The translations under genes and the position numbers were made by a program. From IMG/VR virus record IMGVR_UViG_3300005715_000008: 5,325 nucleotides of DNA, one strand, 5' to 3'. Source of the DNA: a virus (taxonomy: Duplodnaviria > Heunggongvirae > Uroviricota > Caudoviricetes). The notes beneath the pieces were generated by a model. That model did not search any database. It was not told the origin of the DNA and saw only the letters and a program-made list of their open reading frames with translations. Positions 3,825 to 5,325 of the stretch are shown one piece after another (position 1 is the first letter of the stretch; the number at the start of each line of letters is the position of its first letter).

Positions 3825-4473
3825 TGGCAGCAAATACCGAAATATTTGGGTAGTTGGCGATCTGCACGGATGCTACACGAACCTGATGAAAAAACTGGAG
3901 ACGATAGGATTCGACACCAAAAAAGACCTGCTTATCTCGGTTGGCGATTTGGTTGATCGCGGTACAGAGAACGTCGAATGCCTGGAATTAATCACATTCC
4001 CCTGGTTCAGAGCTGTACGTGGAAACCATGAGCAAATGATGATTGATGGCTTATCAGAGCGCGGAAACGTCAATCACTGGCTGCTTAATGGCGGTGGCTG
4101 GTTCTTTAATCTCGATTACGACAAAGAAATTCTGGCTAAAGCTCTTGCCCATAAAGCAGGTGAACTTCCGTTAATCATCGAACTGGTGAGCAAAGGTAAA
4201 AAATATGTCATCTGCCACGCCGATTATCCTTGTGATAAATACGAGTTTGGAAAGCCAGTTGATCATCAGCAGGTAATCTGGAACCGCGAACGAATCAGCA
4301 ACTCACAAGACGGGATCGTGAAAGAAATCAAAGGCGCGGACACGTTCATCTTTGGTCATACGCCAGCAGTGAAACCACTCAAGTTTTCCAACCAGATGTA
4401 TATCGATACCGGCGCAGTGTTCTGCGGAAACCTCACATTGATTCAGGTACAGGGAGAAGGCGCGTGGGCATAA
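3802..4473 (+). CDS. ninI: NinI serine/threonine protein phosphatase (lambda PPase type, calcineurin-like metallophosphatase)
   Basis: From ATG 3802 (RBS GGAG upstream) the product begins [29 protein letters not shown]... and carries the metallophosphatase motifs GDLHG, GDLVDRG, GNHE; it matches my recollection of lambda protein phosphatase almost residue for residue. The track ORF start at 3727 is an upstream in-frame extension inside ninH. Confidence 0.9.
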
Positions 4474-4982
4474 GAGAACTAAACCTCACCAAAGAACAGC
4501 ATGAGTGGCTGAATGGCTGGCTTGAACTGTGGGGCGCATGGGTTTATTCAGGTCGTCTGGAAAAGCGCATGAGCAGCGTAATAGCGAAGTTCATGGAGAG
4601 CGTAGAGCCGGGAAGAGTTATGACAAGGCCAATGTGCAATGATGATGATGGAATGTTGATTTCTCAGGTCGTCGATTCCGTCATGTACATTGACAAGAAA
4701 GCCTTTGGCATCCTCCTCAGCTACTACGCTCATGGTTCATCTAAGCGAGCAATTGCATCCTACTATCACGCGGCTGCAAAGCCACGCAAGATGTGTGGAC
4801 GTGGTGGCGAGGGATGGAGAAAACCTTCACTGGCAACCTGTAGAAACGAAATTGACGACATCCTGAAAGCGTCATTATTTGTTTTATACCAGCCAATGCA
4901 AAATGCTTTCAAAATGCGTAAACGTGTTGAGAAAGTTAAGCATGTTGCTGTTAAAAGCCTTGACATGCAATTAGCCATTTAG
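4464..4982 (+). CDS. Q: Late-gene antitermination protein Q (non-lambda Q family, possibly Q21/Q82-like)
   Basis: 172-aa ORF directly after ninI (GTG 4464 overlapping the ninI stop region, RBS GGGAGAAGG upstream) and directly upstream of a consensus-like promoter plus terminator, which is the canonical position of Q. Sequence does not resemble lambda Q as I recall it; family assignment is from memory and synteny only. Confidence 0.6.
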
Positions 4983-4989
4983 CCATAAT
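4960..4989 (+). promoter_or_regulatory. Late promoter pR'-like (sigma70), probably including the Q-utilisation (qut) region
   Basis: -35 TTGACA (4960-4965), 18-bp spacer, -10 CATAAT (4984-4989); overlaps the Q stop codon (4980-4982). Predicted transcript start around 4996-4998. Confidence 0.55.
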
Positions 4990-4999
4990 TAGAGGGTAA

Positions 5000-5045
5000 G
5001 CTGCCGTTAGTGACTCTTAAGTTGCAACGGTGGCTTTTTTTTATT
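5000..5045 (+). terminator. Rho-independent terminator, tR'-like
   Basis: Imperfect stem g5000-t5008 paired with a5026-c5034 (9 pairs including two G-U), followed by TTTTTTTTATTT (5035-5046). Lies about 40-50 nt downstream of the predicted pR' start, the expected position of the terminator that Q overrides. Confidence 0.5.
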
Positions 5046-5046
5046 T

Positions 5047-5121
5047 GGGTCAGTCGTATAAAGGTCATTACGGAAGGCTGTTAACCTTCTTATCGTGGTT
5101 CGAGTCCACGCTGTCCCGCCA
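5047..5121 (+). tRNA. tRNA gene, anticodon GUU (Asn-like), 75 nt with encoded CCA
   Basis: Manual cloverleaf: acceptor 5047-5053 / 5111-5117 (one U-U mismatch at pair 4-69), U8, D-arm with A14 and G18G19, anticodon stem GAAGG/CCTTC with loop CTGTTAA (U33, anticodon GTT), 4-nt variable loop, T-arm CGTGG-TTCGAGT-CCACG, discriminator G, CCA 5119-5121. Confidence 0.6.
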
Positions 5122-5126
5122 AACAT

Positions 5127-5202
5127 GCTGGTTTAGCTCCAATGGTAGAGCAGTCGCCTTGTAAGCGAATGGGTAGCGGTTCAAGTCCGTTAACCAGCAC
5201 CA
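5127..5202 (+). tRNA. tRNA gene, anticodon UGU (Thr), 76 nt with encoded CCA
   Basis: Manual cloverleaf: acceptor GCTGGTT (5127-5133) / AACCAGC (5192-5198) perfectly paired, D-arm GCTC-CAATGGTA-GAGC, anticodon stem 5153-5157 / 5165-5169 (top pair non-Watson-Crick) with loop CTTGTAA (anticodon TGT), T-arm AGCGG-TTCAAGT-CCGTT, discriminator A, CCA 5200-5202. Confidence 0.7.
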
Positions 5203-5319
5203 TAACTGAGCCGTAGCCACTGGCTATTCTGAATTCATCAGTGATAGTTATGCTGCGGCCTTCTTTTTTCCCCTTCCCAATATAAGAACTACGCAATCCG
5301 TTACTGGCGGAGGCGTTGC

Positions 5320-5325
5320 TATGAA
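5320..5325 (+). CDS. Start of an unidentified downstream gene (only ATG plus 3 nt in window)
   Basis: ATG at 5320 preceded by GGAGG (5309-5313) at appropriate spacing; + strand, downstream of the Q/pR'/tRNA block. Identity cannot be determined from 6 nt. Confidence 0.3.

Follow-up and report, generated by a model that had tools for sequence, protein, structure and literature searches.

An S21-type pinholin gene very probably opens the lysis cassette behind the Q-pR'-tR'-tRNA block of a mosaic lambdoid prophage

The stretch of DNA analyzed here, referred to throughout as the window, comprises 5,325 nucleotides and covers the nin-Q region of a lambdoid prophage. Its open reading frames, all of which are intact in the ORF list, encode a DnaB-like helicase, products of small ORFs, NinB, NinE/F, NinG, NinH, a Ser/Thr phosphatase (PF00149), and the late antiterminator Q. 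Directly 3' of the helicase gene, a strong terminator-like hairpin (AGGCCTGCTGGTAATCGCAGGCCT plus TTTTATTT) at 1323-1354 lies before the nin genes, where lambda has tR2. The features that make up the right-hand end of the window, from Q to the last nucleotide, are as follows.

4464-4982, plus strand: late antiterminator gene Q of the Q21/Sf6 type, 172 amino acids, GTG start (PF06530, Phage_antitermQ, 1.3e-25)
4960-4989, plus strand: late promoter pR', with a -35 hexamer TTGACA at 4960-4965, an 18-nt spacer, and a -10 hexamer CATAAT at 4984-4989
4998-5043, plus strand: intrinsic terminator tR', a long hairpin followed by a T8 run (folding and alignment to phage 21 and Sf6)
5047-5121, plus strand: tRNA-Asn (GUU) (ARAGORN; Rfam RF00005, 55.3 bits)
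5127-5202, plus strand: tRNA-Thr (UGU) (ARAGORN; Rfam RF00005, 61.5 bits)
5204-5262, plus strand: "boundary sequence" island shared with lambda (44945-45003), Sf6, CUS-3, P22-like phages, and 21-like phages
5259-5278, plus strand: pyrimidine tract CCTTCTTTTTTCCCCTTCCC, with the mosaic junction 5264/5265 inside it and S21-type-specific sequence downstream
5265-5320, plus strand: S21-specific part of the leader including GGAGG, identical in Escherichia coli VCSW7 and in locus L192 and near-identical in phage 21
5321-5325, plus strand: very probable first 5 nt of an S21-type class II holin gene, aligned with the start of a 71-amino-acid holin at 83 of 83 loci that share the window's tail

A preliminary description of this DNA had placed a gene start behind a Q-pR'-tR'-tRNA block, and every element of that block was located: a PF06530 protein, a promoter matching the consensus at 11 of 12 positions, a hairpin identical to that of phage 21, and two tRNA genes. 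The window Q protein shares 86% identity with phage 21 Q, from which it does not differ over its first 95 amino acids, and its gene has 99% nucleotide identity to Sf6 gene 59. A promoter scan ranked pR' above every other site in the window, and it aligns with the annotated pR', Q-binding element (QBE), and -10 of phage 21 as well as with the late promoter of Sf6. Directly repeated octamers (ATTAGCCA/TTTAGCCA) occupy 4970-4985, where phage 21 has its QBE, and by this correspondence they probably serve as the site at which the window's Q would bind. By analogy to phage 21, transcription would start near 4996. The region 4990-5050, which contains tR', folds with -22.6 kcal/mol (z = -4.2), and its hairpin sequence is unchanged in the terminators annotated for phage 21 and Sf6. 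A Q-family gene, a strong promoter with repeats between its hexamers, and a terminator a short distance downstream together make up the Q21-type layout. The tRNA-Asn gene is also annotated in phage 21, Sf6, and SfI, and the tRNA-Asn/tRNA-Thr pair is the same as that of these three phages (PMC3636060).

Two variable features of this upstream block deserve mention. The C-terminal third of Q has diverged from phage 21 Q and matches Sf6, and the direct repeats between -35 and -10 vary in step with it: the octamers given above are those of both the window and Sf6, unlike the annotated QBE repeats of phage 21 (ATTGAGCA/AATGAGCA). This co-divergence suggests an altered DNA-binding specificity, with the polymerase-interacting part of the protein conserved. 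In some relatives, an insert of approximately 700 bp lies exactly between the pR' -10 and the inferred start/tR' (window 4989/4996). We observed it in E. coli TB4019 (locus L003, 3027-3730) and in locus L195, where it carries a gene for a 170-amino-acid HNH/AP2-domain endonuclease and, close to its 5' end, a terminator-like hairpin of its own (AAGCCCACATCCTGTGGGCTTTTTT).

At the 3' end of the window, which reads ...GGAGGCGTTGCTATGAA (over a longer stretch, ...GGCGGAGGCGTTGCTATGAA), direct reading of the letters puts the Shine-Dalgarno sequence GGAGG at 5309-5313 and an ATG, the sole one among the final 30 nt, at 5321-5323. The GGAGG-ATG motif described previously at 5309-5322 is therefore present, with its ATG one base further to the right. 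As a consequence, 5 nt of the ORF are visible (ATGAA, 5321-5325) where 6 had been counted, and the leader, counted from the 3' end of tRNA-Thr at 5202, spans 118 nt (5203-5320) instead of 117. The T/C-rich tract that had been noted in this leader is indeed there, at 5259-5278. By itself, the Shine-Dalgarno-ATG motif is not compelling evidence for a gene start, as GGAGG-N5-9-ATG occurs three times in the window compared to 0.74 expected, and 8 of 200 shuffled sequences also reach three. We take the ATG at 5321 as a real start because of its homology to phage 21, not because of the motif: the GGAGG 7 nt before it aligns with the annotated phage 21 ribosome binding site, and ATGAA, which gives Met1 followed by AA-, is compatible with Lys2 of the S21-71 frame.

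We consider it very probable that a phage 21-type class II holin gene (S21; essD-like) begins with the ATG at 5321. Positions 5203-5325 match a prophage of E. coli VCSW7 at every nucleotide (100%) and share 96.8% identity with phage 21, and in both the aligned ATG opens a 71-amino-acid protein, that of VCSW7 being identical to phage 21 S21. The phage 21 annotation at this site gives a dual start for the S21-71 antiholin and the S21-68 pinholin, followed by a SAR endolysin and spanins. When public collections were scanned for the window's 3'-terminal 42 nt, 83 occurrences came up. The ORF behind this tail is complete in 79 of them and in each case encodes a 71-amino-acid S21-type holin, with a sequence identical to S21 in 54, and the remaining four run off the end of the locus and are identical as far as they can be read. 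The dual-start motif MKSM is present in all 83 sequences, of which the window itself displays Met1 and AA-. The relatives with an identical leader (L004 and L192) encode a 71-residue product that has the same sequence as phage 21 S21 and matches PF04971 (Phage_holin_2_1, "Bacteriophage P21 holin S") at 8.6e-36. In 84 complete E. coli genomes, the match extends over at least 80% of 5203-5325, and in 16 of 16 of those among the matches listed, the annotation under the match is a class II holin or essD.

The window's exact Q protein is on record in one contig only (GCA_024733245.1, locus L192), where the identical leader is followed by S21, a 165-amino-acid lysozyme with a SAR-like N terminus, and an Rz-type gene. 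In relatives the gene next to the holin matches PF00959, and an R21-like endolysin comes directly after the holin in 54 of 64. What the protein would be beyond Met1 and the first two bases of codon 2 is predicted from the relatives with an identical leader: reading past 5325 should give ATGAAATCAATGGACAAAATC... or ATGAAATCAATGGACAAA... (MKSMDK...), approximately 71 codons with two transmembrane domains.

Among the same 64 relatives, 10 carry a YdfR-like or other small ORF between the S21 holin and the endolysin (e.g., L003 4275-4610). Because these ORFs sit after the holin, the variable slot of the lysis module is after the holin and not before it. The sole match to the S21 leader among the genome contigs was a 3.9-kb contig (JAJXBQ010000272.1, locus L007) filed in a Segatella copri MAG. 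It matches 114 positions of the window's 118-nt leader and encodes a protein identical to S21, and it is probably a mis-binned contig of an enterobacterial phage.

Beyond its identity, we are highly confident, by homology to the phages named above, that this S21 start marks the first gene of both the lysis cassette and the late operon under Q control in a mosaic lambdoid prophage. That the ATG would open the first protein-coding gene after the Q-pR'-tR'-tRNA block, as had been proposed, agrees with the positions of the elements listed above, and the proposed membership in the late operon is likewise favored, since homology to phage 21 and Sf6 places the gene in the Q-dependent late transcript. 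The preliminary description had left two possibilities for this gene, the start of the lysis cassette or acquired cargo, and had called the position a toxin/moron slot. The first of these possibilities held, with all 83 leaders running into S21, and the toxin/moron assignment did not; an ordinary holin gene downstream, which that description had itself named as the outcome that would speak against it, was found in all relatives.

A cargo gene between the tRNAs and the lysis cassette is nonetheless the reading that the architecture of Stx phages brings to mind, as stx lies between Q/pR' and the lysis genes there (PMC8065619). Lambdoid genomes are mosaic, the window has a junction of its own at 5264/5265, and most of the ORF is beyond view, all of which would leave room for an acquired toxin or moron of the stx kind. 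We regard this as very improbable, because the 56 nt before the ATG are the S21-specific leader, which continues into S21 at each of its 83 occurrences. The interval from tRNA-Thr to the ATG is a complete S21 leader with no room for an extra ORF. Across approximately 150 loci that share the conserved part of the leader, we were unable to identify any cargo before the holin, and in all but three of them the first ORF to reach 60 codons encodes a holin of one of three types. Extra genes of related phages are found elsewhere, either in the pR'-tR' gap (the HNH endonuclease) or after the holin (YdfR-like). Nor would the gene have a promoter of its own. The promoter scan returned no site in the leader on either strand and no sigma-70-like site in 5203-5325, including 5203-5319, where a check for an independent promoter had been proposed, and a Fur box, a check that had been named beforehand, is not apparent, as the best match in the leader (10 of 19 positions) equals what shuffled sequences give (mean, 10.2). 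Within 4900-5325, a search against Rfam families at E <= 1 returned only the two tRNAs.

Somewhat less improbable, although still a minor prospect, is that the ATG is an S21 start but that the gene is disrupted or truncated here, through a defective prophage, an insertion sequence, or a contig end, and gives no functional holin. Many E. coli prophages are defective, neighboring lysis genes are sometimes pseudogenes, such as the YdfR fragment in TB4019, and one locus apparently lacks a holin and goes straight to a lambda R-like endolysin. Against this, none of the 79 complete ORFs behind the tail is disrupted, and the window's own nin-Q ORFs are all intact. As for GGAGG-ATG being a chance motif with no gene behind it, the frequency of the bare motif in the window and in shuffled sequences would permit it, but its alignment, base for base, with the S21 start of phage 21, which is annotated and has been studied by experiment, makes the chance of this negligible. 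A joint or disruption just past the ATG would escape view, and the slight uncertainty that we attach to the S21 assignment stems from this, because the downstream sequence lies beyond the window and the best relatives are only approximately 98% identical to it. In a BLAST search of the whole window against E. coli genomes, the best match had 94% coverage and 97.9% identity. The relative with the identical Q (L192) is 98% identical to the window and mosaic, and those found through the phosphatase and NinG proteins are other mosaics with other holins.

The leader itself is composite. Its first part, the island at 5204-5262, is identical to lambda at 53 of 59 positions (approximately 90%) between flanks that are nonhomologous. 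A tRNA remnant beside the island in lambda was looked for, but no significant similarity extends beyond these 59 nt. In CUS-3, the island falls within a 241-nt feature annotated as "bsq3; boundary sequence," which runs from the island to the S start. The match to the leader is limited to approximately 5203-5264 in 242 of 326 E. coli records and in 75 of 79 phage records; because these relatives match only to 5264, the mosaic joint lies inside the T/C-rich tract. Past the island, Sf6, CUS-3, P22-like phages, and lambda have a longer leader and then a lambda S-type holin. The island precedes three unrelated holin leaders, and among approximately 150 informative loci that contain it, the type of holin can in every case be predicted from the leader variant: S21 comes after pyrimidine-tract leaders, and a lambda S-type holin or a 67-amino-acid holin (PF16080) comes after ACACATG-type leaders. 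This pairing fits the swapping of lambdoid lysis cassettes among several nonhomologous holin types described previously (PMC2629481).

Within the island, a stable hairpin is predicted at 5210-5259, followed by the CUUCUUUUUU tract, and the whole leader folds with a z of -3.2. Across 66 sequence variants, we found no compensatory changes for this hairpin, the changes being one-sided and some of them pair-breaking, and a simple scan for terminators did not pick it out; these results neither support nor exclude it as a conserved RNA structure. A small hairpin at 5291-5316 that would sequester the GGAGG was considered and rejected, as it is lost from the minimum-energy and centroid folds once the coding sequence of a relative is added, and the fold that includes this coding sequence is no better than those of shuffled sequences (z = -0.86). 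The length of the tract varies among near-identical leaders (T6C4, T7C4, TTTTCTCCC, T4C4, and others), a polymorphism of the kind that slippage at homopolymers typically produces and that speaks against tight constraint on the U-tract. Because the island is conserved amid nonhomologous flanks, stands before three holin leaders, and can form a hairpin, it might be a functional element of the late transcript, such as a further terminator that Q suppresses, a signal for RNA processing or stability behind the tRNAs, or a dedicated linker for recombination. We consider such a function rather unlikely, the alternative being that it is a passive "boundary sequence."

Q21 is established to bind in the interval between the hexamers of its promoter and to confer terminator resistance on RNA polymerase. 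If the window follows phage 21, to which its elements are homologous, pR' would fire constitutively, and in the lysogen its transcripts would end at tR'. After induction, Q would bind between the pR' hexamers and render the polymerase terminator resistant, so that it would pass tR', the two tRNA genes, and the 118-nt leader and enter S21, which would thus be under Q-dependent late control. In phage 21, the dual start Met1-Lys2-Ser3-Met4 yields the S21-71 antiholin from Met1 and the S21-68 pinholin from Met4, the pinholin forms heptameric channels of approximately 2 nm that collapse the proton motive force, and the depolarization frees the SAR endolysin, the product of the next gene, from its membrane tether and activates it (PMC9636201). 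The same sequence may apply here, with Met1 giving the antiholin, Met4 giving the pinholin, and depolarization releasing the SAR endolysin.

Comparison to named systems places the window between two phages. Phage 21 (GenBank OL657228) has the order Q21-pR'-tR'-tRNA-Asn-tRNA-Thr-S21-R21 SAR endolysin-Rz/Rz1 and resembles the window in this order up to the S21 start, in the identical tR' hairpin, in both tRNAs, and in the leader, whose 96.8% identity includes the ribosome binding site and start. It differs, apart from the C-terminal third of Q and the repeats of pR', in having T7 where the pyrimidine tract of the window has T6 and in lacking NinH and the Ser/Thr phosphatase gene that the window carries upstream of Q. 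Sf6, a P22-like phage of the group with CUS-3 and HK620, shows 99% identity from Q through tRNA-Thr to window position 5264 and has the same promoter, terminator, and tRNAs, but its leader after 5264 is unrelated, approximately 180 nt longer, and leads to a class I holin of the lambda S107/S105 type and not to S21. RefSeq gives the names "essD" and "class II holin family protein" to genes behind the window's type of leader in E. coli prophages, which recalls essD of the E. coli K-12 prophage DLP12 (PF04971), although the 5 nt of the ORF in the window allow no comparison of function. The stx1 promoter is Fur regulated. The slot of Stx phages (Q-pR'-tR'-tRNAs-stxAB-lysis) shares with the window a Q-controlled leader and tRNAs before the first late ORF (PMC8065619, PMC7547250); unlike it, the window has no cargo ORF between the tRNAs and the holin and no Fur-regulated or other promoter there, and its Q type and its tRNAs (Asn and Thr) differ.

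With respect to toxins, the result is negative, in that this is a prophage without a toxin or other cargo in an Stx-like slot. The S21 gene at this position is a real feature that is already known, and the S21 pinholin/antiholin is a textbook gene whose regulation and mechanism have been well studied. Judged by these sequence comparisons, the nin-Q module of the prophage is Sf6/P22-like and its lysis module is of the phage 21 type, and the prophage thereby provides a clean case of lambdoid mosaicism, in which an Sf6-type nin-Q-tRNA segment is joined to a phage 21-type lysis segment at a short linker, at 5264/5265.
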